The notes under the pieces are model-generated. The model ran no database searches, had not been told where the DNA came from, and saw only the letters and a list, made by a program, of their open reading frames with translations. Of a stretch of DNA of 64,000 nucleotides, positions 21,286-38,007 are shown in pieces. The stretch is from Deltaproteobacteria bacterium. GTDB taxonomy: Bacteria > Desulfobacterota > Binatia > HRBIN30 > JACQVA1. The first letter of the stretch is position 1. The number at the start of each line of letters is the position of its first letter. The DNA lies in assembly GCA_016178705.1 (NCBI GenBank), contig JACOST010000008.1, forward strand, positions 102,069 to 166,068. Reading direction: 5' to 3'. The position numbers were made by a program, and so were the translations under genes.

Positions 21286-22053
21286 TCAGTTTCCGACACG
21301 ATTGCGTTCAAAAATCAGCCGCAGACCTTCCAGCGTGAGAAACTCGTCCACCTCTTCGATGGTTTCCGATTCCGGCGCCAACAGACCGGCGAAGCCGCCC
21401 GTCGCGATCACACGCCCACGCACGCCCTGTTCTTTCCGAATCCGCTCTACCAAGCCATCGACCATCGCCACATAGCCATAGATCAAACCGGATTGAATGG
21501 CATTCACCGTATTGCGCCCGACCACGTGCTTGGGCTTGGCCAACTCGACCCGGTAAAGCTTGGCGGCGCGCTCGAACAACGCCTCGCTGGCGATGCCCAA
21601 CCCCGGCGCGATGATGCCGCCGACGTACTCGCCCTTCTCCGAAATGTAGTCGAAGATCGTCGCGGTACTGAAATCCACGACGATGGTGGTGGTCCGCGTG
21701 CGCTCGAACGCGGCGATGGCGTTGACGATGCGGTCGGCACCGACTTCGCGCGGGTTGTCGTAGAGAATCGGCATGCCGGTCTTGACGCCAGGCCCGATGA
21801 ACAGCGGCGCCGTGCCGAGGTAGTCGCGGCACATTGCCTCGATCACACCCGTCATCGCCGGCACCACGCACGACACAGCGATGCCCGCGACCTGCGGTCC
21901 GAACTCCGCGCCGAGCAAGCCGCGGACGAGGAAACCGTATTCGTCGGCGGTTCGTTCCACGTCGGTCATCACCCGCCAATGCCGCCGCAAGCGCCTGCCC
22001 TCGTACAGTCCGAGCAGAGTCTGCGTGTTGCTTACGTCGATGGCCAGAAACAT
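21286..22053 (-). CDS. coaX: Type III pantothenate kinase, copy 1
   Basis: MFLAIDVSNTQTLLGLYEG... with the acetate/sugar kinase fold motifs of the CoaX family. Confidence 0.8.
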   Translation of the reverse strand: MFLAIDVSNTQTLLGLYEGRRLRRHWRVMTDVERTADEYGFLVRGLLGAEFGPQVAGIAVSCVVPAMTGVIEAMCRDYLGTAPLFIGPGVKTGMPILYDNPREVGADRIVNAIAAFERTRTTTIVVDFSTATIFDYISEKGEYVGGIIAPGLGIASEALFERAAKLYRVELAKPKHVVGRNTVNAIQSGLIYGYVAMVDGLVERIRKEQGVRGRVIATGGFAGLLAPESETIEEVDEFLTLEGLRLIFERNRVGN

Positions 22054-22070
22054 GGGCGCGGCTCCACTCC

Positions 22071-22835
22071 TCAGTTCATCGCGTTGCGCTTGTAGATCAG
22101 CCGAATGCCATCGAGGGTGAGGAACTCGTCGACTTCGTCAATGGTCGCCGATGCGGGCGCGAGCAAACTCGAGAACCCGCCGGTCGCGATGATGCGGGCC
22201 GTAACGCCGCACTCGCGCTGAATGCGCGCGACCAGTCCGTCGATCATCGCCACGTAGCCGTAGAACAGTCCCGATTGAATCGCGGTCATCGTGTTGCGGC
22301 CGACGACCTGCGATGGCTGGCTCAGCTCGACCCGCGAGAGCAGCGCGGCGCGGGCGAACAGCGCGTCACTCGCGATGCCGACGCCCGGGGCGATGACTCC
22401 GCCGATGTACTCGCCGTCGGCCGAGATGTATTCGAACTTGGTCGCCGTGCCGAGATCGACCACGATGGTAGCAGCGTGTGTCCGCTCGTAGGCCGCGACC
22501 GCGTTCACGATGCGGTCGGCGCCGAGTTGGCGCGGGTCGTCGTACAGGATCGCCATACCGGTCTTGATGCCGGGCCCGACGAAGAGCGGCGCCAGCCCCA
22601 AGTAGTCGTGGCACACGGTGGCGATCGTTCCAGTCATCGCCGGCACCACCGAAGCCACCGCGACGCCGGCGAGGCCGCTCCCGGTCGATTCGCCGAGCAG
22701 ACTGCGCAACAGAAACCCGTACTCATCGGCGGTGCGCGCGGGCTCGGTGACCAACCGCCAGTGGCGCTGCAACCGCGCACCGTCGTAGAGCCCGAGCACC
22801 GTGTTCGAGTTGCCGATGTCGATGGCGAGCATCAT
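22071..22835 (-). CDS. coaX: Type III pantothenate kinase, copy 2 (tandem paralog, about 70% aa identity to copy 1)
   Basis: MMLAIDIGNSNTVLGLYDG... ATG at 22835; the upstream extension in the track is rejected. Confidence 0.75.
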   Translation of the reverse strand: MMLAIDIGNSNTVLGLYDGARLQRHWRLVTEPARTADEYGFLLRSLLGESTGSGLAGVAVASVVPAMTGTIATVCHDYLGLAPLFVGPGIKTGMAILYDDPRQLGADRIVNAVAAYERTHAATIVVDLGTATKFEYISADGEYIGGVIAPGVGIASDALFARAALLSRVELSQPSQVVGRNTMTAIQSGLFYGYVAMIDGLVARIQRECGVTARIIATGGFSSLLAPASATIDEVDEFLTLDGIRLIYKRNAMN

Positions 22836-22842
22836 GGCTGAC

Positions 22843-23676
22843 TTAGTCGGTCCTCGCCTCTCGCAATTGATCGTAGCCACCCAACACGGTCACGTCGCCC
22901 GCCACCACGCGGCACTCGCGGCCATCGGCGCCACGCACGCGCAAGGCTCCATCATCGGCCAAGCCCAGCGCGACCCCCTCGATACGTTCCGACTTTCCAT
23001 GCACATCGCTCTGCACCACAATCGGCTGGTCCGTCAAACACGAGAAGCGCTCCCATTCGGGCGCCAACGTCGCAAACCCATCGCGCTGCCATTGATCGTA
23101 GCGTGCCTCGCAGCGGTTCAACAGCCGCGCCGTGAAGCGTGCGCGATCGATCGCCGCGCCGGTGATCATCGACAGCGAGGTGGCGATGCCGCGCACCGCG
23201 GGTGGAAAATCCTCGGGCGCGCTGTTGAGGTTGACACCGATGCCGGGGATGACGAAACGGACGCCGGACTCGTCCGCCACCATCTCGGTGAGAATGCCCG
23301 CCAGCTTGCGCCCGCCGCTGACCAGATCGTTCGGCCATTTGATCGCGACGTTCGATGTCCACTCGCGGACGGTCTCGGCGGCGGCGAGACCCACAACCAA
23401 GGTGAGCTGTGGAATCACTTCGGACGGCAGCCTCGGCCGCAACACCAACGACAGATAGAGATTGCGCTGCGGCGGCGACACCCACTGCCGGCCCAGCCGT
23501 CCACGCCCGCGGCGTTGACTCTCCGCGATCACCACGGTGCCCTCTTCCGCGCCCGCCTCGGCCAACTCGCGCGCGGTTGTGTTGGTCGAGTCGACCTCCT
23601 CGAACACGTGCAGGCGGCGACCGAAGCGCCGCGTCGTCAGGTGCGGCTCGATGTCGGTGGCCTGCATGCCATTCAC
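22843..23676 (-). CDS. birA: Biotin--[acetyl-CoA-carboxylase] ligase BirA (no obvious N-terminal HTH)
   Basis: ...ESQRRGRGRLGRQWVSPP... is the GRGRxGRxW BirA motif. Classic birA-coaX adjacency. Confidence 0.8.
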   Translation of the reverse strand: MNGMQATDIEPHLTTRRFGRRLHVFEEVDSTNTTARELAEAGAEEGTVVIAESQRRGRGRLGRQWVSPPQRNLYLSLVLRPRLPSEVIPQLTLVVGLAAAETVREWTSNVAIKWPNDLVSGGRKLAGILTEMVADESGVRFVIPGIGVNLNSAPEDFPPAVRGIATSLSMITGAAIDRARFTARLLNRCEARYDQWQRDGFATLAPEWERFSCLTDQPIVVQSDVHGKSERIEGVALGLADDGALRVRGADGRECRVVAGDVTVLGGYDQLREARTD

Positions 23677-24548
23677 CCCGCGCCTCTTCCAGAAAGAGTA
23701 GGGGGAGAGATCTTCATGCTGAAGTCGAACGCGGCGGCGGAATGCGTCAGCGCGCCGACCGAAATCAGATCGACCCCCGCGGCGGCGACTGCCCGCACGC
23801 GTCCGAGAGTCATGTTGCCCGACGCTTCAACCAGCGCGAGGCCGCCGATCTGCTTCACCGCAGCGGTGGTCATCGCCACGTCCATGTTGTCGAGCAAGAT
23901 GCAGTCGGCGCCGGCCGCCAACGCCTCTTCGACTTGTTCGAGCGTGCCGCACTCGATCTCGATCTTGAGCGTGTGCGGCGCGCCGGCGCGCGCACGCTCG
24001 ACCGCCGCGGCGACTCCGCCGGCGGCGGCGATGTGATTGTCTTTGATCAGAATGCCGTCGGAGAGATTGAAGCGATGATTGCCGCCGCCACCGACGCGCA
24101 CCGCATATTTCTCCAGCAGGCGCAGACCCGGCAGCGTTTTGCGCGTGTCGACAATGCGGCAACGCGTGCCGTCTACCGCTTGCACAAACGCGTTGGTGAG
24201 CGTGGCGATGCCCGAGAGGTGCTGCAAGAGATTGAGCGCAACCCGTTCACCGTTCAGCAACGCGCGAGTCTTGCCGCTCAGCGCCGCCACCACCGCGCTC
24301 TCTTCGAGCGGATCGCCGTCCTGATAGTGCGGCTCGATCCTTACATCGCCGAGGACATCGTAGACGCGCTGCACGAGCGGCAAGCCGGCGAGCAATCCGC
24401 CCTGCTTGGCAATGATGTACGCGGTCGAACGGCTATTCGCGGCGACGGTGAGCGCCGTAGTTACATCGCCGGAACCGAGGTCTTCCGTCAACGCGGCTCT
24501 GACTAAGTCGACAACGGCAGGCAGGCTGAGCACGTCGTCCATCAACAA
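23673..24548 (-). CDS. nadC: Nicotinate-nucleotide pyrophosphorylase (quinolinate phosphoribosyltransferase)
   Basis: 291 aa with the QPRTase family core (...LLDNMDVAMT...). Confidence 0.85.
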   Translation of the reverse strand: MLMDDVLSLPAVVDLVRAALTEDLGSGDVTTALTVAANSRSTAYIIAKQGGLLAGLPLVQRVYDVLGDVRIEPHYQDGDPLEESAVVAALSGKTRALLNGERVALNLLQHLSGIATLTNAFVQAVDGTRCRIVDTRKTLPGLRLLEKYAVRVGGGGNHRFNLSDGILIKDNHIAAAGGVAAAVERARAGAPHTLKIEIECGTLEQVEEALAAGADCILLDNMDVAMTTAAVKQIGGLALVEASGNMTLGRVRAVAAAGVDLISVGALTHSAAAFDFSMKISPPTLSGRGAG

Positions 24549-24554
24549 GTCCGT

Positions 24555-27221
<2,667 letters not shown>

Positions 27222-27285
27222 GGGCGAAACAGATGCGTGCTGTCGCTACCGGAATCGAGTGCGCTGAGCAAGTGATGGTAGGCAG

Positions 27286-27370
27286 CTTCTGGTCTGTGGT
27301 TTCTGGTTTCTGGTCTGTGGTTTCTGGTCTCTGGCTTTCAGCTTTCGGCTTTCCGCTTTCAACTTCTTCC
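27286..27370. repeat. Tandem array with 7-nt period (ctggtct/gtggttt/ctggctt units, about 12 units)
   Basis: cttctggtctgtggtttctggtttctggtctgtggtttctggtctctggctttcagctttcggctttccgctttc, read directly from the sequence upstream of valS. Confidence 0.8.
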
Positions 27371-27443
27371 CTGCCTAGGTAGTGTCTCAGTTTGAAAATT
27401 CAACGGGCTTGGAACGACCCGGCAATCGTGCGATCTTGTCCGC

Positions 27444-27674
27444 ATGCCGAAGGGACCGCAAGGCCAGCGCAGACCCGCCGACGTGATCGGCAACGCGGTC
27501 CACGTGATGCGGATTGCGACCGGCGAGATTGAGGATACGCCACGCGACCCCGGCAAAGAGTACATGCGCAAGGGTGGGCTGAAGGGCGGGAAGGCGCGGG
27601 CGGCGACGCTCAGCAAGAAACGGCGGACGCAGATTGCAAAAAATGCCGCTCGGGCACGATGGGAGAAACCGTGA
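27444..27674 (+). CDS. Small basic conserved hypothetical protein (76 aa)
   Basis: MPKGPQGQRRPADVIGNAVHVMRIATGEIED...KGGLKGGKARAATLSKKRRTQIAKNAARARW. I recognise this as a widespread small-protein family of unknown function but cannot name it. Confidence 0.35.
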   Translation: MPKGPQGQRRPADVIGNAVHVMRIATGEIEDTPRDPGKEYMRKGGLKGGKARAATLSKKRRTQIAKNAARARWEKP

Positions 27675-27730
27675 ACCAAAACAAACAACGAAATTGCGGC
27701 GTGGTAGGCAACTTGCTGTCGTCTCCGAAC

Positions 27731-27961
27731 ATGGCGGATACAGTCGAACGAGTCGTTCTCTTGGCCGAGATCGAAAAGGGCCTCCGGAGTCGCGTTGCTG
27801 GAATTGACGGATGGCTGGCTGAAATTGGTAGCTCCTGTAAAACGGACCAGCGTCATTGCGAAGAGGGGACGGTCGAGCGCGCCTATTGGCACTACGGCTA
27901 TGCCGTAGCGATCAAGGACGTGCTCGACCTCCTTCAGTCAGCGGCGATGCCGATCAACTAA
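27731..27961 (+). CDS. Hypothetical protein
   Basis: ORF MADTVERVVLLAEIEKGL... with no recognisable motif. Confidence 0.2.
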   Translation: MADTVERVVLLAEIEKGLRSRVAGIDGWLAEIGSSCKTDQRHCEEGTVERAYWHYGYAVAIKDVLDLLQSAAMPIN

Positions 27962-28365
27962 GCACCACACGCCGGGCAGTGGTTCCAGGCGTAAGGCTTC
28001 GCCGGATGGATCTCGTTGTCCAGCCGCCCCTGCGCACCACCGAATGCATGGTAGAGGAGGCATTCCTTTTCGTAAGCGGCCGTTGCATTAGGAAAGTGGC
28101 CGTACATGAAGTACCGGTATTTGCCGATCCAATCCTTCAGACGGCCGTTCAAGTCGTCGTCGGATCGTCCGGCATAGCGAATGGTCAGCGAGTTATCGGG
28201 AAGGAGCACATCACCAAGAAGATAAGCGCCGATCGACCTGCTGACGTTCGCATCAATTTCTGAGCGTGTCAGGCTAAAGATTCCGGAAAGACCAGTTGCA
28301 ATTGCCATTGCAAACCTCATCATCTGCGGTTCGTGACCGCCGTAAAGGACTTGCCAGGAATTCAT
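27958..28365 (-). CDS. Hypothetical protein, weak GIY-YIG-nuclease-like motif spacing, C-terminal CxxC
   Basis: GIFSL...AYLLG...R...YRYFMYGHF...AYEKECLLYHAF...N and a C-terminal NHCPACGA. The resemblance to GIY-YIG is by eye only. Co-oriented and immediately downstream of the HTH-HATPase-STAS gene. Confidence 0.25.
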   Translation of the reverse strand: MNSWQVLYGGHEPQMMRFAMAIATGLSGIFSLTRSEIDANVSRSIGAYLLGDVLLPDNSLTIRYAGRSDDDLNGRLKDWIGKYRYFMYGHFPNATAAYEKECLLYHAFGGAQGRLDNEIHPAKPYAWNHCPACGA

Positions 28366-28524
28366 GGACTCGCTAAGAAGGCTTCTGCTCGGCTAATTCT
28401 GGCAAACCCGAGTTGATACCACCGACAAGGCCGCTGCGTGGGGCAGCGGCCTTGTCGCCTTGATGGGACTGAATCTTCTTGTACGGCACTTCCAGATAAG
28501 CGTCCTCCCTTCCCCTTCTGCACT

Positions 28525-29652
28525 CTAAGCTATTTCCGTCTCCCCCTTTGGGCGCGGTCCTTCGCCATTCTCGCTCAGTGGCGTCATGCCGGGCAGAAAT
28601 GGTGTTTCGGTATTGCCGCCGTCGCTCTTGACGTGCAGAATCATTCGCACCACGTCGGAACTAGCGTTCACTTGCCAGATGTGAATGTCTGGATGCTCGC
28701 GGGCGAACACTCGAAATATCTCGTCAGCGAATCCCTGGCCAATACTTTCAACCCCAGAGAAGTCGAGAACGACCTCCCTAAAGTGGTCAACCCGCTTGAG
28801 GAGTCGGCGCGCCTGCGATCGAGAAACCAGCATCTCGCCGTCATGCTGAGCAAGGCTTGCGACCAAGTGGGTGCGCGTAAACCCGTAGTGGTCGGTGCTC
28901 GGCGCAAATTGGTTGAACACTTCCAACGCTGTTCGCAGCGACAGAGGATGGATGGTCATGTGGACATGGGTCCCTGCCGCTGGGGCCGGGTCTATCTCTA
29001 ACAGCCAGTCCTTTTCGTCACGGTGCGCGAAGTACAACTGGGCCGACATGATGCCGAACAGATCGAACATCCTGGAAGTAAAAAAGATGCCTTCGCCACT
29101 GTGGTGGGCATGGTCGGTTGTGAGTTTTCCCTTTGAGAGTTCCAATACAGCGTGTCGCGGATCATCAAGTCCGAAGGCCCTTTGGAGCTTGGCGAAGATT
29201 CCGACGCCGTGGTCGACGACGGTCAGCCCGATCGCTGCGGCCGTGCGGCTGATACCAACGACAAATGCGGGAGACTCTGAATGCACGATCGCGTTGTTCA
29301 CGATTTCCGTGATCCCGTGTTGACAAATGGTTCGCACGTTTGCCGGTACGTCCTTCAGGTGCGGTAGAATCTCATTTCGCCATACCTCATCTTCGTTGAC
29401 GCCAGGACCGATCTCTCGTCGTGCGACATGGTTCACCAGTTGGGCGAGACAATACGATCTGCCCTTTGTATCTCCATTGGGAATGAGCCAACCCATCTGG
29501 ACAAGATCATGTAGGTGGCGATGTACTGCCTGCCGACTCACATCGAAGTGTTCCGCAGTCACTCTGGCGATGTCACCAGGATGGGCCGCGACATTGTCCA
29601 CAATCCACCGCTGCATGGACTCCTGCTCTGACATGGCCGTATTTGAAACCAT
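28525..29652 (-). CDS. HTH – GHKL (HATPase_c, RsbW/SpoIIAB-like) – STAS-like (DUF4325) fusion protein
   Basis: N-terminal wHTH (DIARVTAEHFDVSRQAVHRHLHDL). GHKL N-box ITEIVNNAIVHS, G1 VVDHGVGIF, G2 HHSGEGIFF. C-terminal VVLDFSGVESIGQGFADEIFRVF...VNASSDVVRMI matches the DUF4325 consensus. Confidence 0.55.
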   Translation of the reverse strand: MVSNTAMSEQESMQRWIVDNVAAHPGDIARVTAEHFDVSRQAVHRHLHDLVQMGWLIPNGDTKGRSYCLAQLVNHVARREIGPGVNEDEVWRNEILPHLKDVPANVRTICQHGITEIVNNAIVHSESPAFVVGISRTAAAIGLTVVDHGVGIFAKLQRAFGLDDPRHAVLELSKGKLTTDHAHHSGEGIFFTSRMFDLFGIMSAQLYFAHRDEKDWLLEIDPAPAAGTHVHMTIHPLSLRTALEVFNQFAPSTDHYGFTRTHLVASLAQHDGEMLVSRSQARRLLKRVDHFREVVLDFSGVESIGQGFADEIFRVFAREHPDIHIWQVNASSDVVRMILHVKSDGGNTETPFLPGMTPLSENGEGPRPKGETEIA

Positions 29653-29797
29653 GATCGCGCGTTTGTCAACCTACACGCTTTGATTTGGCAACGGGACATG
29701 GTAGATTTGCGCCGTTCTTCGGTTTTTGGTGGTAACGATGGCTCCAAATAGTCAATTGATGCTTGACACTCAAGCAAAAATATCATATACTCCGGGC

Positions 29798-30652
29798 ATG
29801 AACAGATTGCCCCTAGCCAAGCGCGCCCAAATCCTCTCGCTGCTCTGTGAAGGTTCGTCGATGCGCTCAGTGTCGCGGCTCGTGGACGTGTCGATCAACA
29901 CCGTCACCCGCGAGCTGATCCTTGCCGGCCAGGCATGCACGGCATTCCACGATCAGGTGGTGCGCAACGTGAACTCCAAGCGCATTCAGTGTGATGAGAT
30001 TTGGTCGTTCTGCTACTCCAAGGCGAAAAACGTCCCGGAAGAGAAGCGAGGGAAGTTCGGGTACGGCGACGTGTGGACGTGGACGGCAATCGACGCCGAT
30101 TCCAAGCTCTGTCTTTCGTGGTTTCTTGGCGGACGCGATGCGGGCGCGGCCTACTACTTCATGATGGACCTATCGGAACGCCTCACGTCGCGCGTGCAAC
30201 TCACGACCGACGGGCACAAGACGTACCTCAGCGCCGTTGAATCCGCGTTTGGCATCGGGATCGACTATGCGATGCTGGTGAAGATTTACGGCGCATCGCC
30301 CGAGGGCGAAACGCGCTACAGCCCAGCGGTCTGCATCGGCACCGAACGCCACGCGGTCACGGGCGACCCGGACCCCGAGCACATTTCAACGAGCTACGTG
30401 GAACGCTCAAACCTCACGATGCGGATGCACATGCGCCGCTTTACTCGCCTCACCAACGCCTTCTCGAAGAAGATCGAGAACCACGGCCACATGGTTGCGC
30501 TCTATACGGTCTGGTACAACTTCGTGAGAATCCACAAGACGCTGCGGATGAGTCCGGCGATGGCTGCTGGTGTTACGTCGGCCCTCTTGTCGATGGAAAA
30601 CGTGGTCGAGATGGTCGATCAGTGGGAAGCGGCGAAAAAGACCGCGACGTGA
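29798..30652 (+). mobile_element. IS1-family transposase (single-ORF form with HTH + DDE)
   Basis: CDEIWSF...TTDGHKTY...ERSNLTMRMHMRRFTRLTNAFSKKIENH parallels E. coli IS1 InsB (DEQWGY...TDGWPLY...[28 protein letters not shown]). There is an AT-rich stretch just upstream (29770-29795). Terminal inverted repeats are not defined. Confidence 0.7.
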
Positions 30653-30669
30653 TAGAGACCAAAGCCGCA

Positions 30670-31119
30670 ATGGAAACAGAGGACAACCCACCACCGCGCG
30701 CCAGCGTGAACTACCGACGCGGCCTAACACGCTTGTATGTTGTGATCTCGGCCCTCTGGATTGCATTTGTCCTAGTCGGCGTGCCGTGGTGGGCACGTGA
30801 TACATGGATACGGAACGCTAGCGTGGCTTTGGAGCAGAAAAAGCAGGAGATGTCCTCCCGCGACGCGGCCCTGAAGAAGTCCCCGATCGACCAACGCGAA
30901 GCGGATGAGCATCAACGCCTCGCCGACGAACATCAGCGTGACGCCGAGTGGTTCCGGCAGCACGCAGACAACTGGTGGTCAGAAACCTGGCTTGCCCCGC
31001 GCCTGTTGTCGCTTTGGGCAATCGCCCTCGGCGCAATACCAATAGCTCTCTATGGCATTCTCTACGCACTGATTTCGGGACTGGACTGGGCCAAGCGCGG
31101 CTTCAGAAATTCAAACTGA
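30670..31119 (+). CDS. Hypothetical membrane protein (2 TM helices)
   Basis: Hydrophobic segments LYVVISALWIAFVLVGVPWW and LLSLWAIALGAIPIALYGILYALI. No other motif. Confidence 0.3.
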   Translation: METEDNPPPRASVNYRRGLTRLYVVISALWIAFVLVGVPWWARDTWIRNASVALEQKKQEMSSRDAALKKSPIDQREADEHQRLADEHQRDAEWFRQHADNWWSETWLAPRLLSLWAIALGAIPIALYGILYALISGLDWAKRGFRNSN

Positions 31120-31205
31120 GACACTACCCCTGCCTACTGTCCCTTGACCGTGTCGCAGCGGGAAGCTATCACCGTCGCGCGCTAGCCGACAGTGTTCACA
31201 CCCAT

Positions 31206-31289
31206 GCGAAAGTGGCGGAACTGGCAGACGCGCAGGATTCAGGATCCTGTGGGGTAAAACCCGTGGGGGTTCAAGTCCCCCCTTTCGCA
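31206..31289 (+). tRNA. tRNA-Leu (anticodon CAG), long variable arm
   Basis: Acceptor stem GCGAAAG/CTTTCGC, D-arm TGGCGGAACTGGCAGACGCG, anticodon stem-loop CAGGA-TTCAGGA-TCCTG (CAG at positions 34-36), long variable arm, T-arm GGGGGTTCAAGTCCCCC. No CCA encoded. Confidence 0.8.
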
Positions 31290-31488
31290 CTTCGTCCGTT
31301 GAGCGCTAACGCATTTGCCAGATCTACCTGACGCTGCGTTTGTTGCTGTTTCTCGCTACCACCCAGCAGGCCCACGACCCGCATCGCAGCGCTTCGCGAA
31401 GTAAGATGCGATAGCCGGAAGCTAACACTCCGGAACGAATAGAGGACCCCTTCCCTCCCCGAGCGCCTGTTCGGCGATCTAGGGAGCG

Positions 31489-31512
31489 TCGTCGCTGGCA
31501 TCCCACGACATG
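31489..31512. repeat. 24-bp exact direct repeat, copy 1 (copy 2 at 33946-33969)
   Basis: tcgtcgctggcatcccacgacatg occurs twice. On the minus strand it encodes MSWDASDD, which is the C-terminal end of the PPOX-like gene at copy 2. Confidence 0.8.
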
Positions 31513-31665
31513 CGCCGGCGCGCCAACTATCAGCGACACGATCACGGCCGCGCCGCGTCTGGCCATCATCTACCACGATCTCTCGTGACGGCATCCTCGA
31601 TACGGTCGGACAGGGAGCGATGCCGTTGCCGACACACACCCCGTTTGTGTTACCGCGCGATCACC

Positions 31666-32808
31666 CTATTGGCACGCGAACGTGCCGGTGACGACGACGT
31701 CACCGGTTTGCTCGTCCAGGTTGCCGAATGCGCTCACCTGCGACGAGCCGCTCAGTCCGTCCATCGGATTGCCCGCCATGATCTTACCGCAGTCGAGCGC
31801 CGACCCGGTGACCTTGGTCCGGCAGTGACTCGCGCCGCAGACCTGCCCGTCGGCGATGCTGGTGCCCTGGATATCGCTGGTGTTCAGGATTTGCGCCGTC
31901 GCCGTTCCGGTGGTGGTCGCCAGCAGGTTGGGCTTCCCTATGCCGACATCGTCGGCGGTACAGGGAATGCCGTCCGGCCCCTCTGGGGCGCCCGCCGTGT
32001 TGGGCGGCACGGTCTTGCACGTACCGCCGTCCGGCAACAGGCTGACCGACGTATTCGAGTTGATCACCGCCGAACCAGTCGGGCCGGAGCCGCTGAAGGT
32101 AGTCACCGGCATGGCGTTGCACGCCGGCTTGCTGCTGCATAGGCTAGGGTTGTGCGGATGCATATCCGAACCGTCTTCCGGCGTCCCGCTTGTGCAATTC
32201 GGATCGGGGTCGGGCGTGTCGCAGTGCGTGTCGTGGTCGATGCTGTAGAGGTAGTTCACATTCGCCAAGCCGGCGGAGCCGCAGCCGGCTTTGCCTTCGG
32301 CGGAGTTCATGCCGCCGAAGGCGGCCACCGGCACGCTGCGCACGCAGGCGCAGCCCACGCCGGACACCTTGACGGGATCGAACGTCATATCGGGCGCCGC
32401 GATGACGATCGGCACCTCCATCGCGGCGAAGGCAGGCGTCGATGACCCGGCGTAGAAAGTGGAATCCGTCCGTGGATGCCCAGTGGTGAGCGTTTGCTGG
32501 CCGGTGAGGCGGAGCTGGATCGCGAAGATGGCCGTCTGCACCTTGGAGACGGTATCGGGGCCGAACACGCACAAGCGGCGGTTTTCCACCGTGCAATTGG
32601 CCGCACAGCCGTCGCCGCCGATGGTATTGCCATCGTCGCATTCCTCGGAACCTTCCATCACGCCGTTGCCGCAGACAGCGCCTGTACTGGAGGGCGTGTT
32701 CGCCGGGGTAGCCGTCCCGCCTTCGTTATCACCGCCGCAGGCGGCGAGGAAGATCGCCATGCCGCCGGCCGCGAGGATCGCGCCGAACCACTGGTTCCGA
32801 GTCTTCAT
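31666..32808 (-). CDS. Secreted lipoprotein with myxobacterial-type cysteine-rich repeat
   Basis: Lipobox LAACGG. VCGNGVMEGSEECDDGNTIGGDGCAANCTVE matches the Myxococcus cysteine-rich repeat (CGDG...EECDDGN...DGC...C..E). The remainder is Gly/Thr/Cys-rich. Confidence 0.6.
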   Translation of the reverse strand: MKTRNQWFGAILAAGGMAIFLAACGGDNEGGTATPANTPSSTGAVCGNGVMEGSEECDDGNTIGGDGCAANCTVENRRLCVFGPDTVSKVQTAIFAIQLRLTGQQTLTTGHPRTDSTFYAGSSTPAFAAMEVPIVIAAPDMTFDPVKVSGVGCACVRSVPVAAFGGMNSAEGKAGCGSAGLANVNYLYSIDHDTHCDTPDPDPNCTSGTPEDGSDMHPHNPSLCSSKPACNAMPVTTFSGSGPTGSAVINSNTSVSLLPDGGTCKTVPPNTAGAPEGPDGIPCTADDVGIGKPNLLATTTGTATAQILNTSDIQGTSIADGQVCGASHCRTKVTGSALDCGKIMAGNPMDGLSGSSQVSAFGNLDEQTGDVVVTGTFACQ

Positions 32809-33183
32809 GTCATCCTCCTCAACTAGTGTACCCCGTGTCGATCTCGTGATGGCCAGGATCGAGCAGCGTGTTCAGCGACTGCGGAGTCGGCGACAGGGCA
32901 GCGGCGGGATCGATCGGAGCCGCCCGAGCCGGCAGCGCGGCACCGTGCAGTCACAGATCCCCGTCGAAGTATTTTTGGTACGTCTTACCGCGAATCCGCT
33001 CGCGGTTGATCGCGAACTGCCGCTGTGTGGCGACCGGATAGTACGTGACCCGGTTCTTCATGCTCCCTTCCGTGGGAACGGGTGTGCGCCAAGGTAGTGC
33101 GCATGCCACTCCGCGGTGAGGCGGGAGAACGTCGGCGCGGTGAGCTCGGCGGGGCGATGTCCAGCGGGCTGCCATCGTGGCGC

Positions 33184-33789
33184 TCAGAAGCGGAGCATGT
33201 CGACCGGGCCTGTGCCCTCGGGAAGCGGCGGTCGCGCCGTGAGTGTCTCGATCGGCTCGCCGGCCTCGTAGCGCGCGACGAGTTCCTCCGGATCAAAGAT
33301 CACGCCGATCGGATTGGCGGAGAACTCGCCGCTGCGCATCCAGGCGTCAATCGCCCGGGCGGAGGGCATGCTGTCGACCTGCAGCTCGACGCGGTTGCCG
33401 TCGGGATCCTTGTAGTACAGCGAGGTGGTCGGCCCGCGGTTGATGCACCAGTACGGCTCGATACCGGCTGCCTTGAGGCACCGGAAGGTGTGCAACAGAT
33501 CGCCGAGATCCGCGTAGCTGAACGCGATGTGATCGGTGCCAGCAGCCATCATTGGCTGCTCTTCGAGCCCAGGAATACTCGCGATGGCGATCCGATGGTG
33601 CTCGTCGTCGTAAGTGAGAAAGGCGAGTACGCCGTCGGAGTGCACCACCTCGGCGCCGAGGACAGTGCAATACCAACGTACCAACTCGTCGAAGCGCGCG
33701 GTACGACGCACGACGTGTGCAAGCTGGCGCGGCTTCACCACGCCGCGATTCACGGACAGCCGACGTTGGCGGTCTTCCCGAGTGCTCAT
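33184..33789 (-). CDS. VOC-family protein (glyoxalase/extradiol dioxygenase fold)
   Basis: MSTREDRQRRLSVNRGVVKPRQLAHVVRRTARFDELVRWYCTVLGAEVV... shows the typical VOC beta-alpha-beta-beta-beta module pattern. ATG at 33789; the track ORF from 33948 starts inside the 24-bp repeat. Confidence 0.55.
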   Translation of the reverse strand: MSTREDRQRRLSVNRGVVKPRQLAHVVRRTARFDELVRWYCTVLGAEVVHSDGVLAFLTYDDEHHRIAIASIPGLEEQPMMAAGTDHIAFSYADLGDLLHTFRCLKAAGIEPYWCINRGPTTSLYYKDPDGNRVELQVDSMPSARAIDAWMRSGEFSANPIGVIFDPEELVARYEAGEPIETLTARPPLPEGTGPVDMLRF

Positions 33790-33916
33790 GTGTTCTCCTG
33801 TCTCCTGCAGGTCCTTGGCCGTTCGTTGAAAACGTCCCTCTTGGATCGGGGCCGGACCAGAACGAGGAAATCTTCCTGCGTGGAAATCGCGCTCGTGCCG
33901 CGACCCCGTGCTCCGT

Positions 33917-34486
33917 TCAGGGGGAGGGACGTGCATCGTCGCTGGCATCCCACGACATGAGCGAGCTCACCCAGTGCGTGATCGGCTCCTCTTGGTCGTT
34001 GCGGTGGAGATGGCGCGGAGGCTGCGCGAACGTCTCATAGGGCTGGCAGCGGAGGACGACCCGGCCCTCCTGCTCCGCCATCGCTTGGACCATGGGGCGC
34101 GCGTGATCGGGAAGGGGCTGGCCCGACATACGACCGGCCACGGCCATCATGACGTCGACCACCAGCTCCGGATCGGTCTCGACGCGAGCGTCGCAATAGA
34201 CTTGAAGATAGGCGAAGGGCCAGCGCTCGTCGAGGATGCACAGGCTCACCTTGCCGTTGCGAGCGACCGCCTTCGCCTTGGCACGACCGCGCATGGTGGA
34301 AACGAGCAGCTCATCGCCGTCAGTCGGCACGTAATACACGATAGACATAGCTGGACCGTCCAGGCGACGGGCGTTGCCGAAGACGCAGGTGCGGTGGGTC
34401 CGGACGAAGGTCCGCCGCTCGGACGGTAGCATGTCGCGATCGGTTGGGGTCGTGAAGGGTTCAACGGGCCACGGTAGCAAGTGCAT
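33917..34486 (-). CDS. PPOX-class (pyridoxamine 5'-phosphate oxidase-like) probable F420-dependent oxidoreductase
   Basis: MHLLPWPVEPF...RTCVFGNARRLDGPAMSIVYYVPTDGDELLVSTMRGRAKAKAVARNGKVSLCILD fits the PPOX-class F420-dependent enzyme pattern. Divergently transcribed from the TetR gene. Confidence 0.55.
   Translation of the reverse strand: MHLLPWPVEPFTTPTDRDMLPSERRTFVRTHRTCVFGNARRLDGPAMSIVYYVPTDGDELLVSTMRGRAKAKAVARNGKVSLCILDERWPFAYLQVYCDARVETDPELVVDVMMAVAGRMSGQPLPDHARPMVQAMAEQEGRVVLRCQPYETFAQPPRHLHRNDQEEPITHWVSSLMSWDASDDARPSP
33946..33969. repeat. 24-bp exact direct repeat, copy 2
   Basis: Identical to 31489-31512. It overlaps the last 8 codons of the PPOX-like gene on the minus strand. Confidence 0.8.
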
Positions 34487-34509
34487 TTGGGGCTCTCCTT
34501 CGGAGCAGA

Positions 34510-35259
34510 TTGTATTATCGATCGATAATACTATATCGTAGCTCCGTGAGTTACACAAGCAAGGGCCGCCCCCGCGTTCGTCGCGATCGCAAGAACCTGC
34601 GCTCACAGTTGTTGGACGCAGCGCTCGTCGAATTCGGCGCGAAAGGATTCACCGGCGCATCGACGCGAGCCATCGCCCGGCGCGCCAACGCCCACCAGCC
34701 GCAGATCAACTACCACTTCGCCTCGAAGCGCGCGCTGTGGAACGCGGCGCTCGAGCACCTCTTCGCTCTGCTTGGCGACGCCATGGGCGGCGTCGTAGTG
34801 CCCCCGCGCACCGGCCGGAGGCACGACGTCCAGGCGCTTGCGGATGCGTTCGCCGAGGGTATCCGATGCTTCGTGCGGTTCGCGGCCGCGCACCCTGAGC
34901 TGAACCGGATCGTGGTGCACGAGGCGACGGCGGCGAGTGAGCGACTCCGTTGGATGACGAAGCGACACGTGCGGCCGTTCTACGAAACCGTCCGCGCGCT
35001 CTGGCGTCCGCTGCGCGCCGCCGGGATCGCGGCGCCCATCGACGAGAAGCTGGTGCACTACGTGCTCGTCGGTGCCGCCTCGCTACCCTACGTCAATGCT
35101 CCCGAGGCGCGGCTCCTCACCGGCGCCGAGCCAACCGATCCGGCCTGGGTTGAAGCGCACGCGGATGCCCTGGTGGCGACGTTGCTGCCCGGGCGGACCG
35201 AGAGGCCGCGAGCAGCGCGGCGGGAGGTTGCTTTCGCGAGACGCCGTCGGACCAAGTGA
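34510..35259 (+). CDS. TetR/AcrR-family transcriptional regulator
   Basis: N-terminal HTH ...RSQLLDAALVEFGAKGFTGASTRAIARRANAHQPQINYHFASKRALW. The start may be GTG 34546, downstream of the palindrome. Confidence 0.75.
   Translation: MYYRSIILYRSSVSYTSKGRPRVRRDRKNLRSQLLDAALVEFGAKGFTGASTRAIARRANAHQPQINYHFASKRALWNAALEHLFALLGDAMGGVVVPPRTGRRHDVQALADAFAEGIRCFVRFAAAHPELNRIVVHEATAASERLRWMTKRHVRPFYETVRALWRPLRAAGIAAPIDEKLVHYVLVGAASLPYVNAPEARLLTGAEPTDPAWVEAHADALVATLLPGRTERPRAARREVAFARRRRTK
34513..34530. promoter_or_regulatory. 18-bp perfect palindrome TATTATCGATCGATAATA in the divergent PPOX/TetR promoter region (probable TetR operator)
   Basis: Read directly from the sequence. It lies between minus-strand ATG 34486 and the TetR ORF, in an AT-rich context. 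Confidence 0.45.
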
Positions 35260-35317
35260 CGGAGAAGAACGGACGCTGACGGCAGCGTCTGCATTCTTTC
35301 ATGCTTAGCCCGCTGAC

Positions 35318-35362
35318 CCTGTGGGGCAAGACCCGTGGGGGGTTCAAGTCCCCCCTTTCGCA
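35318..35362. repeat. Direct repeat of the 3' end of tRNA-Leu(CAG) (45 nt, 3 differences): att-site-like island boundary
   Basis: cctgtggggcaagacccgtggggggttcaagtcccccctttcgca versus tRNA 31245-31289 cctgtggggtaaaacccgtgggggttcaagtcccccctttcgca. No matching 5' half upstream, so it is not a second tRNA. Confidence 0.7.
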
Positions 35363-35407
35363 TCTAAATTCCTGCTCGACAAATCTCGCCGAGTTGCGCG
35401 CCCGCCG

Positions 35408-35455
35408 CGGCATGGCCGCGTAGAGTCACTCAAGCCGCCTTCGCCGTGACGGACA
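35408..35455. repeat. 48-bp direct repeat, copy 1 (includes the last 8 codons + stop of the higA-like gene and 24 nt downstream)
   Basis: cggcatggccgcgtagagtcactcaagccgccttcgccgtgacggaca matches 36197-36245 with 2 mismatches. Confidence 0.75.
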
Positions 35456-35750
35456 ATCTAACGCGCGTCTTCTTCTGCAGGGTACGGACGATGCCGAAGA
35501 AATTTTCGGTGCTCGGATTTCCGTGCGGTGCCAGCATCCGATGGAGGCTCTTGCTCGGTTTGTTGACTGCCGCCGCGAGGGCCTCGAAGCCGACCGTCGC
35601 GTTAACCAAATCGCGCAAGATAGCCTTGCCAGTAGATGTGTCGCCGGCGAGATAGGCGTTGATCGCTTCGCTAAACAGCGCTTGACGGAATCGCGCATCG
35701 CGCTGGGCTCGTGCCAGGATGGTTTCCCTGAAATCTCGTGTGAGCGCCAT
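35430..35750 (-). CDS. higA: HigA-family addiction-module antidote protein (HTH)
   Basis: MALTRDFRETILARAQRDARFRQALFSEAINAYLAGD...FFGIVRTL matches the addiction-module antidote (HigA) family pattern. Immediately downstream of the killer gene. Confidence 0.65.
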   Translation of the reverse strand: MALTRDFRETILARAQRDARFRQALFSEAINAYLAGDTSTGKAILRDLVNATVGFEALAAAVNKPSKSLHRMLAPHGNPSTENFFGIVRTLQKKTRVRLSVTAKAA

Positions 35751-35768
35751 AATCTCCTCTCTGACAAT

Positions 35769-36122
35769 TCACGCCTTCCGGCGCCGGTAGTCGGCCCATC
35801 GCGCTCTTGCCGAGGCGATGGCTTCCTGCTGTCGTTGCTTGCTGCTCCCACCCAGCAAGATCACCAGGGCATCTCCATCTCTGCCGAAATAGACGCGGTA
35901 GCCAGGACCAAACTCGATCTTCCGTTCGAACACACCGGAGCCAACACCTTTCACGTTCGAAAAATTGCCAGCGGCCAGCTGATGGACAGCCGCAGCCACT
36001 TTGGCCGCCGCCGGCGCATTCAACGAGTCGAACCACCTCGCGTAGGCGGAACGGCCGTGGCCATCGAGGTATTCAACGAGCCGGATCGGCGCCACGCATG
36101 AAAGTAACATAAATGTTACCAT
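35769..36122 (-). CDS. higB: Addiction-module killer protein (RelE/HigB-like toxin)
   Basis: MVTFMLLSCVAPIRLVEYLDG...GNFSNVKGVGSGVFERKIEFGPGYRVYFGRDGDALVILLGGSSKQRQQEAIASA fits the putative addiction module killer family. ATG at 36122 sits within the inverted repeat GTAACAT-AA-ATGTTAC. Confidence 0.65.
   Translation of the reverse strand: MVTFMLLSCVAPIRLVEYLDGHGRSAYARWFDSLNAPAAAKVAAAVHQLAAGNFSNVKGVGSGVFERKIEFGPGYRVYFGRDGDALVILLGGSSKQRQQEAIASARARWADYRRRKA
36104..36119. promoter_or_regulatory. Inverted repeat GTAACAT-aa-ATGTTAC overlapping the higB-like start codon (candidate autoregulatory operator)
   Basis: Read directly from the sequence. TA operons are typically autorepressed at palindromes near the start. 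Confidence 0.3.
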
Positions 36123-36140
36123 TGTTGCAACCGCGGCATC

Positions 36141-36177
36141 GGCGGGCACCATCCATAGATCCGGCGGAGCCTCCTCG
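36141..36177. repeat. ~37-bp direct repeat, copy 1 (copy 2 at 37710-37748 immediately after the stop of the 36505-37710 gene)
   Basis: ggcgggcaccatccatagatccggcggagcctc versus ggcgggagccatccataaatcgggcggagcctc (4 mismatches). Confidence 0.65.
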
Positions 36178-36196
36178 AACCGGGCGGGATTTCGGC

Positions 36197-36245
36197 GGCA
36201 TGGCCGCGTCGAGTCGCTCAAGCCGCCTTCGCCGTGACGGACATG
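36197..36245. repeat. 48-bp direct repeat, copy 2 (orphan higA 3'-end remnant upstream of higB)
   Basis: The minus strand reads ...ATGTCCGTCACGGCGAAGGCGGCTTGA, i.e. SVTAKAA*, the same C-terminal codons as the higA-like gene. Confidence 0.75.
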
Positions 36246-36504
36246 CCGGAATCGCGACCGAGGCACATCGCGCATCTGGCTTGGGGCACTTCCCCCAGCA
36301 AACGTTGGAGAGCGTAGTGTCTGCCTTCGATCGCCAGTTCCTGTACCAAACTCCTCTTGGCCGGACTCTTGCGTTACATTCATTCGACGCCTCGAAGATG
36401 CGCAACAACATTCCCCTTAGTTCGTTGCCATCCAGGCAGGGGTGAATACGGCCAGGCACTCATCGCGGGGAAGTTCGGTATTTCAGCTCAGATCAAGGGG
36501 AGGA

Positions 36505-37710
36505 ATGAACGGTCACATGGAAAGGACAATGAAGGCGTCGCACGTCCTGCTCACGTCGAGAAGACTATCATTCTTGCCGATCTTTGGACTCGTGTTGGTC
36601 GCGTTGAATACGGGAGCTACGTTACAGGCACAATTCCCTGCTCGCGGAGACGATGTTACGCCGTCGCTCGGCCAATTTAATGTCGTCGTTGATCCCCACT
36701 TCGAGGCTGCAATCCAGAGCAATCCCGCGTATGGCCCGTTTCTCTCCAACAAGGGCGGTAACTTGAATTTCACCAGCCCGATCCTCTTTGATCCGACAAC
36801 AACGATCGGGCGAAGTGACCCGCTCAGCGCAGGTTCGGCTGAGGATATCGCCGGGGTGCTGTCGGGGACTTTGGCGCCGCGCCTGCTTCAAGACGGCCAA
36901 TTCACGGTGAGGCCCTCCTTTGCGGAGGGCCCCGACGGCACGCACGAGGTTCACACTTTCATCGAATCCCTCCACCTGATGGGAAATGGATTCGAAGTGA
37001 AGGCCGGAGACCAAGCTCCGCGGCGGCCAATCAGCGTGGGTGAGGTGGAGTCTCTGTCCGGCAACAGCGGGAATCCGATTCAGGACTTCCCGGCTAACAG
37101 CTTTTTCGATGTCTTCGTTGAGGTAGACGTTCCCGCTCTGGGGGGATTTCCGAGTGTCCAGTTGGTCAATGTCGATCCCCTCTTGGTTCAAAGCGACAGT
37201 ATCACCAGCTTCCCGCCAACCGTTCTCTATGTACACGGGAACTCTTCCGCCGTGCCGCTATACTTCTACGCGGACATACCTGTTTTCGGCGTTCATCGAG
37301 GGGACCTGTTCGGCCAACTGACTGTGGCCGGCCACGGGGTCGGCTTCACCGAGGCGGACGTGGCGGAGTTCGAAGCCAAGGAAATGGAATCCGAGCAGCA
37401 TCGTGGTCGTCTGCCGCTTCAGGCCAATCCAATCCCGCACGTGACCATTGTCGATGAGGTTTTGAACACTCCCACACCAACACCGACACCCACACCAACA
37501 GCGACCCCGACAACGACCCCTCCGCCCTGTATCGGCGATTGCGATGGCTCGCGCTCCGTGACCGTCGAGGAACTAATCATCGGGGTCAACATCGCGCTGG
37601 ACCAAGCACCGCTCAGCGGCTGCATGAACTTCGACAGCGACAACAGTCAGACGGTCACCGTCGAGGAACTGGTGCAGGCAGTCGGCAACGCGCTGGGCAA
37701 CTGCCCGTAG
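36505..37710 (+). CDS. Secreted protein with Pro/Thr linker and C-terminal dockerin-like tandem calcium-binding repeats
   Basis: Signal peptide MKASHVLLTSRRLSFLPIFGLVLVALNTGATLQA. Linker TPTPTPTPTPTATPTTTPPP. C-terminus CIGDCDGSRSVTVEELIIGVNIAL...CMNFDSDNSQTVTVEELVQAVGNAL has two DxDxS/N..VTVEEL repeats. The start is one of ATG 36505, 36517 or 36529. Confidence 0.5.
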   Translation: MNGHMERTMKASHVLLTSRRLSFLPIFGLVLVALNTGATLQAQFPARGDDVTPSLGQFNVVVDPHFEAAIQSNPAYGPFLSNKGGNLNFTSPILFDPTTTIGRSDPLSAGSAEDIAGVLSGTLAPRLLQDGQFTVRPSFAEGPDGTHEVHTFIESLHLMGNGFEVKAGDQAPRRPISVGEVESLSGNSGNPIQDFPANSFFDVFVEVDVPALGGFPSVQLVNVDPLLVQSDSITSFPPTVLYVHGNSSAVPLYFYADIPVFGVHRGDLFGQLTVAGHGVGFTEADVAEFEAKEMESEQHRGRLPLQANPIPHVTIVDEVLNTPTPTPTPTPTATPTTTPPPCIGDCDGSRSVTVEELIIGVNIALDQAPLSGCMNFDSDNSQTVTVEELVQAVGNALGNCP

Positions 37711-37748
37711 GCGGGAGCCATCCATAAATCGGGCGGAGCCTCGGCAAC
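37710..37748. repeat. ~37-bp direct repeat, copy 2
   Basis: See 36141-36177. Confidence 0.65.
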
Positions 37749-37822
37749 CCCGGCCTGAGGCTGGCCCGGGATGCCATCCGCGGTTACCTCGAATGCCCTG
37801 TGTATCAACGAGAAGAGAAAAG

Positions 37823-37895
37823 TGGAGCTGAACGGAATCGAACCGTCGACCTCCTGAATGCCATTCAGGCGCTCTCCCAACTGAGCTACAGCCCC
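37823..37895 (-). tRNA. tRNA-Ala (anticodon GGC) with the G3:U70 identity pair
   Basis: The reverse complement GGGGCTGTAGCTCAGTTGGGAGAGCGCCTGAATGGCATTCAGGAGGTCGACGGTTCGATTCCGTTCAGCTCCA folds as a canonical cloverleaf. The anticodon loop ATGGCAT gives GGC. Acceptor pair 3:70 is G:U. Confidence 0.8.
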
Positions 37896-37944: not shown

Positions 37945-38007
37945 GGTTTTGGATTGCGGATTGGGGATTGCGGAGTGCGGAATGCAGAGTGCGGAATGCG
38001 GAATGCC
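37945..38007. repeat. Heptamer tandem array (GGATTGC/GGAATGC/GGAGTGC units, about 9 units)
   Basis: ggttttggattgcggattggggattgcggagtgcggaatgcagagtgcggaatgcggaatgcc. Confidence 0.8.

Follow-up and report, generated by a model that had tools for sequence, protein, structure and literature searches.

The 64-kb window analyzed here (64,000 nucleotides of contig JACOST010000008.1, from the Binatia assembly GCA_016178705.1) contains an intact tRNA-Leu(CAG) gene and, 4.07 kb downstream on the same strand, a 48-nt copy of the 3′ end of the same gene. We think it probable, on indirect evidence, that the 4-kb block between them (31291-35314) is a decayed genomic island, integrated at this tRNA gene (tDNA), whose integrase has since been lost. 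Below we lay out the geometry of the repeat, the content of the block, the synteny around it, and the activity of integrases at the same tRNA in other Binatia, and weigh this reading against other origins for the fragment and the block.

A tRNA-Leu(CAG) gene and a copy of its 3′ end flank a 4-kb block

The two ends of the block resemble the left and right attachment sites (attL and attR) of an integrated element, and the block itself comprises four Pfam-assigned genes, one small open reading frame (ORF), and non-coding spacers:

31206..31290, plus strand: intact tRNA-Leu(CAG), attL-like end of the islet (ARAGORN; Rfam RF00005 match 31206-31289, 55 bits)
31291..31665, no strand: non-coding spacer of 375 nt, the usual place for an integrase gene; no Pfam match in its ORFs
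31666..32808, minus strand: Cys-rich lipoprotein (DUF4215), 380 aa (Pfam PF13948)
32951..33061, minus strand: hypothetical 36-aa ORF, called in Logan assemblies; no Pfam match
33184..33789, minus strand: glyoxalase/VOC-family protein, 201 aa (Pfam PF00903, E=7e-14)
33917..34486, minus strand: PNPOx-like (pyridoxamine 5′-phosphate oxidase fold) protein, 189 aa (Pfam PF01243, E=1.5e-11)
34546..35259, plus strand: TetR-family regulator, 237 aa, divergent from the PNPOx-like gene (Pfam PF00440)
35315..35362, plus strand: tRNA-Leu 3′-end fragment, 48 nt, attR-like end (sequence alignment)

A preliminary description of this DNA, made from the sequence alone, had placed a complete tRNA-Leu at 31206-31289, and both programs agree, ARAGORN ending the gene at 31290 and Rfam at 31289; the sequence is identical to that of the tRNA-Leu(CAG) in a sister lineage (L074). 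The fragment covers the 3′ strand of the tRNA anticodon stem and everything beyond it as far as the acceptor end, with GATCCTGTGGGGTAAAACCCGT-GGGGGTTCAAGTCCCCCCTTTCGCA in the 3′ part of the tRNA pairing with GACCCTGTGGGGCAAGACCCGTGGGGGGTTCAAGTCCCCCCTTTCGCA in the fragment. Over 48 nt, the alignment contains three substitutions and one extra G, none of them beyond its first half: one affects the base that opens the 3′ strand of the anticodon stem, two lie in the variable loop, and one precedes the T stem. Fragment and tRNA are identical over the final 24 nt (T arm through acceptor end), and identity stops exactly at the final tRNA base. The repeat had originally been given as a 45-mer with three differences; this count stands, as two substitutions and one inserted G, and the third substitution enters only on extension to 48 nt. 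The second copy had also been described as lacking a 5′ half, and neither ARAGORN nor Rfam gives a call there. The fragment sits in a 170-nt gap between the stop codon of the TetR gene (35259) and that of an antitoxin gene (35430) and overlaps no Pfam domain. That a 3′ fragment lies downstream, on the same strand, and between genes, with identity ending at the last base of the tRNA, argues for an integration scar.

To place the repeat in a wider context, we used 68 loci obtained by scanning GTDB species genomes with a tRNA 3′-half pattern, one genome per species, nearly all labeled Candidatus Binatia. Across these 68 species, the repeat is confined to the tRNA-Leu gene except for a few extra partial copies, which look like further attachment (att) scars; it is not a generic repeat. 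Within the window, its 22-mer core occurs exactly twice, against zero occurrences expected from shuffles, and a relaxed 17-mer search found no third tRNA-Leu fragment.

The layout recurs in other assemblies. Over 20 kb, the window is 99.7% identical to JACPZC010000026.1 (GCA_016195705.1), both repeat copies included, and two SRA runs, assembled separately, yield contigs with the same interior. Because independent assemblies show the same layout, the structure is real. The block was found in all the assemblies of this species that we located, which makes it reasonable to call the island fixed, as had been proposed.

The block is a mosaic of accessory genes

Pfam bears out the gene content first read from the sequence (a Cys-rich lipoprotein, a VOC-family gene, a PPOX/F420-type oxidoreductase, and a TetR regulator), to which the 36-aa ORF is added. 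For the lipoprotein, the best non-self homologue among 5.8 billion proteins is just 45-47% identical, and the nearest one is located in an unrelated ABC-transporter context. This piece of cargo is therefore specific to the species, with no homologue above 47% outside it, which is a further argument for the integration-scar reading.

The PNPOx-like protein has a much wider distribution. Relatives are encoded on 254 metagenome stretches, the best 80 of which are 74-86% identical, and in at least 44 of these 80 loci, a TetR partner (60-75% identical) stands beside the PNPOx-like gene. The neighbors of these pairs are almost all different, and none of the pairs adjoins tRNA-Leu(CAG). The pair is a two-gene module of many genomic contexts and not recognizable island cargo. 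Looking for the four-gene block elsewhere, we found that only the TetR-PNPOx pair recurs, always with unrelated flanks, and that the VOC and lipoprotein genes are never found with it. Since the flanks of the pair differ, the VOC and lipoprotein genes never join it, and lipoprotein homologues do not exceed 47% identity, the block is a mosaic without a recognizable element. The promoter region shared by the TetR and PNPOx-like genes holds a perfect 16-nt palindrome, ATTATCGATCGATAAT (34516-34531, read from the sequence), which is likely to be a TetR operator.

The spacer between tRNA-Leu and the lipoprotein gene contains, at 31486-31524, a copy of the 3′ end of the PNPOx-like gene (33933-33971; 24 nt exact, 39 nt at 85%), a piece that encodes the last codons of that gene (..MSWDASDDA.P*). 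The presence of this duplicate in the tRNA-proximal spacer points to a past internal rearrangement of the block, and we count that signal, too, in favor of an integration scar.

No integrase or phage gene is detectable in the block

The first reading of this segment had found no integrase in it, and our searches lead to the same result. Pfam detects no integrase domain among the genes of the 4-kb block, and the spacers at 31291-31665, 32809-33183, and 35363-35429 give no Pfam match at E≤1. Using two Binatia integrases (from loci L011 and L166, described below) as tblastn queries against the block, we obtained a match only to residues encoded by the tRNA and no remnant. Nor did an integrase appear among the large ORFs scanned elsewhere in the 64-kb window, or in the gene tables of L071 and L081, the contigs that match it. 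Pfam likewise finds no phage structural or replication genes in the block, and the att sequence has zero matches among IMG/VR viral contigs; on these two grounds, the block does not qualify as a prophage or satellite.

Sister homology stops at the 3′ end of tRNA-Leu

The valyl-tRNA synthetase gene (ValRS) adjoins tRNA-Leu(CAG) throughout Binatia, and this conserved linkage places the intact tRNA-Leu at its ancestral position. Of the other lineages, the closest is that of L004 and L074 (ValRS 96% identical as protein and ~92% as DNA); it aligns with 21820-27285, skips 27286-31128, resumes at 31129, and ends at 31293, 4 nt past tRNA-Leu. This abrupt end of sister homology argues for the scar as well. 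On the opposite side, homology to L079 (MgsA 96% identical) extends from 44232 to 37800, ~22 nt beyond the 3′ end of a tRNA-Ala gene convergent with tRNA-Leu:

37822..37895, minus strand: tRNA-Ala(GGC) (ARAGORN, Rfam)

With sister homology stopping near both ends, the whole 6.5-kb stretch from one tRNA 3′ end to the other is species-specific. The preliminary description had let the island end at the repeat, but lineage-specific DNA runs past the repeat to the 3′ end of tRNA-Ala, at ~37800. The sister lineage has unrelated genes at these positions: an SRAP pseudogene after one of the tRNA 3′ ends, and DUF4760, ThiS, AFOR, and Lhr after the other.

We then looked for an empty site through ValRS and MgsA orthologues, in relatives 96%, 86%, and 80-82% identical, and found that the flanks downstream of tRNA-Leu all differ. 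As the right flank is never shared, a true empty site is not demonstrable; the comparison with relatives thus yields an end of sister homology 4 nt after the tRNA but no empty site with the same right flank. The ValRS/tRNA-Leu and tRNA-Ala/MgsA neighborhoods are not adjacent in any relative examined, implying a rearrangement or large deletion in some lineage. The position of ValRS itself varies across the class: in ~31 of the 68 species, it follows tRNA-Leu on the same strand at a distance of ~110 nt, and in the clade of the window, it is upstream and divergent, so that tRNA-Leu is inverted relative to ValRS at the clade level.

The same tRNA is an integrase target in other Binatia

In L011, an integrase gene of family PF00589 (2609-3751, minus strand) lies directly after tRNA-Leu on the opposite strand, and its frame continues into the tRNA 3′ end. 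A gene of the same type is frameshifted in L048, and C-terminal stubs are left in L047 (86 aa at 60% identity), in L056 (82 aa at 54%), and, shorter still, in L042, L045, and L057. Members of this family share the tail ...CERGDLNP, and the forms seen across species are an open frame running off a contig end, a frameshifted gene, and progressively shorter stubs. A second type, unrelated to that of L011, is found in L166 (ENA ERZ27266267 k141_4898309; ValRS 82% identical), where a frameshifted integrase lies ~1 kb downstream on the strand of the tRNA and scores 63.5 bits on PF00589 after frameshift repair; a 22-aa remnant of this type is present in L045.

Parts of tRNA-Leu are repeated at other loci, too. 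L056 has a 24-nt tRNA repeat 3.9 kb downstream, with genes for RelE and a methyltransferase, a reverse transcriptase fragment, an IS200-like gene, and HigA in between, and L046 has a 25-nt repeat 3 kb downstream, without an integrase. In L013, Prim-Pol/AAA_25 and SDH-protease genes precede a tRNA-Leu fragment that starts from the anticodon loop, and the intact tRNA is on another contig. The anticodon loop and the T arm are known integrase crossover subsites in tRNA genes (PMC4383910). Together, the related loci form a series of integrase decay, from intact through frameshifted and stub to nothing, with the window and L046 at its end. The targeting of the same tRNA by integrases in other Binatia, with fragment repeats, is a further reason to read the window as an integration scar.

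In L075 (GCA_016210005.1, JACQVA010000006.1), a cluster of >10 kb lies downstream of the same tRNA-Leu. Its genes encode DUF499, PDDEXK_3, DUF1156 methyltransferase-like, and AAA_14/DUF4143 proteins and an SNF2/helicase protein of 1205 aa, and it is probably a defense system.

A model for the locus and its alternatives

We propose that, in this Binatia lineage, a tyrosine integrase inserted an element into tRNA-Leu(CAG), within the 3′ part of the gene. The insertion would have split the tRNA gene, with the element providing a new 3′ end so that the tRNA at 31206-31290 remained intact, and the displaced original 3′ end would have moved to the far side, where it would now be the 48-nt fragment at 35315-35362. 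The integrase gene, which normally adjoins the tRNA, and any transfer genes would have been deleted later, so that four ordinary accessory genes remain, bounded by an attL-like and an attR-like site. Both the arrival of this block by integration and the former presence of an integrase in it are steps that we infer from the repeat, the synteny, and the related loci.

Several observations weigh against this model. Neither Pfam nor tblastn detects any integrase remnant in the block. In none of the 68 Binatia species does tRNA-Leu match the variant carried by the fragment, with its CAAG variable loop and extra G. The TetR-PNPOx pair occurs widely as a conserved module and has no link to a tRNA elsewhere. 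No relative joins tRNA-Leu directly to the sequence that follows the fragment, and the right flank of the sister lineage differs up to tRNA-Ala. Finally, the composition of the 4-kb block is indistinguishable from that of the host, as the following values show:

Whole window: GC 0.634
31291-35314, no strand, 4-kb block: GC 0.653; tetranucleotide z=0.42; codon-choice z=-0.16
35363-37800, no strand, segment with a toxin-antitoxin (TA) pair and a secreted-protein gene: GC 0.596; tetranucleotide z=3.45; codon z -2.2 to -2.9
27378-31128, no strand, IS1-family element of 3.75 kb: GC 0.571; tetranucleotide z=3.85

The check for deviating GC and codon use that had been suggested for the 4-kb segment is thus negative. 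Codon use is host-like in the lipoprotein gene (z=0.63), and the TetR gene (34546-35259) has a codon z of -0.94. Because only the neighbors deviate in composition, the atypical DNA here is that of the two neighboring segments and not of the block. The earlier view of the locus as a degenerate island without an integrase accordingly holds in part: the repeat geometry, the missing integrase, the synteny break, and the targeting of the tRNA in relatives speak for it, and the host-like composition and the lack of an empty site speak against it.

Among the alternatives, a tandem array is a possible but clearly less probable origin. An older element, of which 35363-37800 would be the remains, would have given the tRNA its 3′ end, and a 4-kb element arriving later would have displaced that end to become the present fragment; both integrases and the outermost fragment would have been lost afterward. 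Tandem arrays at tDNAs are documented (PMC4383910), and compositionally foreign DNA, which is missing from the sister lineage too, does stand to the right of the fragment. The departure of the fragment variant from the Binatia consensus would also be expected of a 3′ end supplied by an element. However, no second fragment is present near tRNA-Ala or anywhere else in the window. We had considered a resemblance between the right flank of the fragment and the integrase 3′ ends of L047, L048, and L056 and dropped it after a shuffle test, in which it was not significant (best of seven p ~0.03, others >0.19).

It is unlikely that the block is native chromosomal DNA, with the fragment derived from the right-hand foreign segment or from a rearrangement at the tRNA genes, so that the interval would be no island at all. 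This origin would account for the host-like composition and codon use of the block and for the conservation of the TetR-PNPOx module across many genomes, and some rearrangement or large deletion in one lineage or another is in any case implied by ValRS/tRNA-Leu and tRNA-Ala/MgsA being nowhere adjacent in relatives. Nevertheless, the block is missing at this site in the sister lineage, where no lipoprotein orthologue was found, and no PNPOx-like homologue in the metagenome scan exceeds 86% identity. A direct downstream 3′ fragment is, moreover, what integration at the adjacent tRNA predicts, whereas a native block needs an extra event that is not site-specific.

It is highly improbable that a second, tandem tRNA-Leu gene lost its 5′ half by deletion and left the fragment as its stub. 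Sequence similarity alone would fit such a duplication, but a second tRNA near tRNA-Leu occurs at none of the 68 Binatia loci, and the partial copies elsewhere are likewise 3′-only, direct, and start at the anticodon loop or T arm. A chance match, with zero matches expected from shuffles, or an assembly artifact, given the same structure in a 99.7%-identical contig of an NCBI metagenome-assembled genome and in contigs of two separately assembled SRA runs, is so improbable that it can be dismissed.

Comparison with known integrative systems

The integrated-island model can be set against the tDNA-integrated genomic islands defined by Islander/TIGER (Hudson, Lau & Williams 2015, PMC4383910). Islander looks for a full tDNA with a cognate fragment in the proper orientation, a length of 2-200 kb, a fragment outside any full tRNA gene or Pfam domain, and a PF00589 integrase (PMC4383910). 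In the window, the tRNA and the fragment are on the same replicon, the fragment is downstream on the same strand, the length falls between 2 and 200 kb, and no full tRNA gene or Pfam domain is overlapped. No PF00589 gene, however, lies within or overlaps the interval, so the Islander filter would reject the locus. The start of the fragment, on the 3′ side of the anticodon arm, fits the anticodon-centered (A) subsite. At 4 kb, the block is far smaller than the typical islands, whose sizes peak at 13.6 kb and 40 kb (PMC4383910). By composition, it would not be recognized as a horizontally acquired island, whereas the neighboring segments deviate.

The integrases of Mx8 and SSV are encoded by genes that extend across attP, the attachment site of the element (PMC4383910). 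In a similar arrangement, the integrase frames of L011, L048, L047, and L056, with their ...CERGDLNP tails, enter the tRNA-Leu 3′ end on the opposite strand; the window itself contains no such gene or stub.

Cis-mobilizable elements (CIMEs) have functional att sites, and their mobilization through accretion with an incoming integrative and conjugative element (ICE) has been shown, mostly in Firmicutes and not in Binatia (ICEberg 2.0, PMC6323972). Judged by its sequence, the block appears structurally alike, having attL-like and attR-like flanks and no integration or transfer genes, a likeness that is expected of a deletion derivative of an integrative element. The likeness is structural only; the att copies of the window differ at 4 of 48 positions and no cognate ICE or integrase is known.

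The locus can also be compared with a tRNA-flanked plasticity zone. Synteny with close relatives is lost precisely at the 3′ termini of two convergent tRNAs, and between these lies a mosaic with TA modules and short direct repeats, with an insertion sequence (IS) nearby; the >10-kb cluster of L075 stands at the same tRNA. Nothing in the window is unusual for such a zone.

Neighboring segments

Two further segments flank the tRNA-Leu block, one beyond the fragment and one upstream of the tRNA:

27378..31128, no strand: IS1-family transposon, a separate element upstream of tRNA-Leu (terminal inverted repeats; DDE_Tnp_IS1 and DUF4325 by Pfam)
35363..37800, no strand: second lineage-specific, compositionally atypical segment, absent from sister lineage L079 (Pfam, repeats, composition)
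35430-35750, minus strand: HigA-like antitoxin (Pfam)
35769-36080, minus strand: Gp49/HigB-like toxin (Pfam)
36517-37710, plus strand: secreted protein of 397/422 aa, with a Thr/Pro linker and two C-terminal repeats

In the right-hand segment, 49-nt direct repeats (35407-35455 and 36195-36243; 96% identical) bracket the TA pair and copy the 3′ end of the antitoxin gene, and 45-nt direct repeats (36141-36185 and 37710-37754; 80% identical) bracket the secreted-protein gene, one copy beginning at its stop codon, ~70 nt from tRNA-Ala. Both repeat pairs were found in this species only. A tRNA-Ala fragment, which would have pointed to an island in that gene, is absent. Upstream of tRNA-Ala, 37945-38000 is an intergenic run of tandem repeats with a 14-nt period, similar to GGATTGCGGA.

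The IS1-family transposon ends in perfect 19-nt inverted repeats, GGTAGTGTCTCAGTTTGAA, and has produced an 8-9 bp target duplication, CCTGCCTA. Besides an IS1-like DDE transposase, it has as passengers a 135-aa ORF, a membrane ORF of 165 aa, and a DUF4325/HATPase-like protein, and the sister contigs L004 and L074 have a clean empty site for it. Intergenic short tandem repeats resembling GGTTTCTGGTCTGTGG occupy 27290-27360, upstream of ValRS, where the sister lineage has a repeat resembling GGCAGTAGGCAGAGG instead. Elsewhere in the window, 4535-7489 (minus strand) encodes a protein of 984 aa whose only Pfam match is an N-terminal TIR domain (PF13676) and which may serve in defense or signaling.

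Implications for the Binatia

The importance of the locus is mostly one of annotation. Scars of this type are well known and common, and the host phylum is little studied; the cargo, consisting of a lipoprotein, a VOC-family enzyme, and a TetR-regulated PNPOx-like enzyme, is unremarkable. The two att copies share a perfect 24-nt T-arm/acceptor core, and it is conceivable, though quite doubtful, that the block is still recombinable in the manner of a CIME, such that an incoming integrase of the L011 or L166 type could excise it or co-mobilize it in cis. If so, integrase-less blocks like those of the window and L046 would hitch-hike among Binatia. The decay states preserved at one site could help to calibrate island-finding tools, which reject cases that lack an integrase, and tRNA-Leu(CAG) beside ValRS emerges as a recurrent integration hot spot in this uncultured class.

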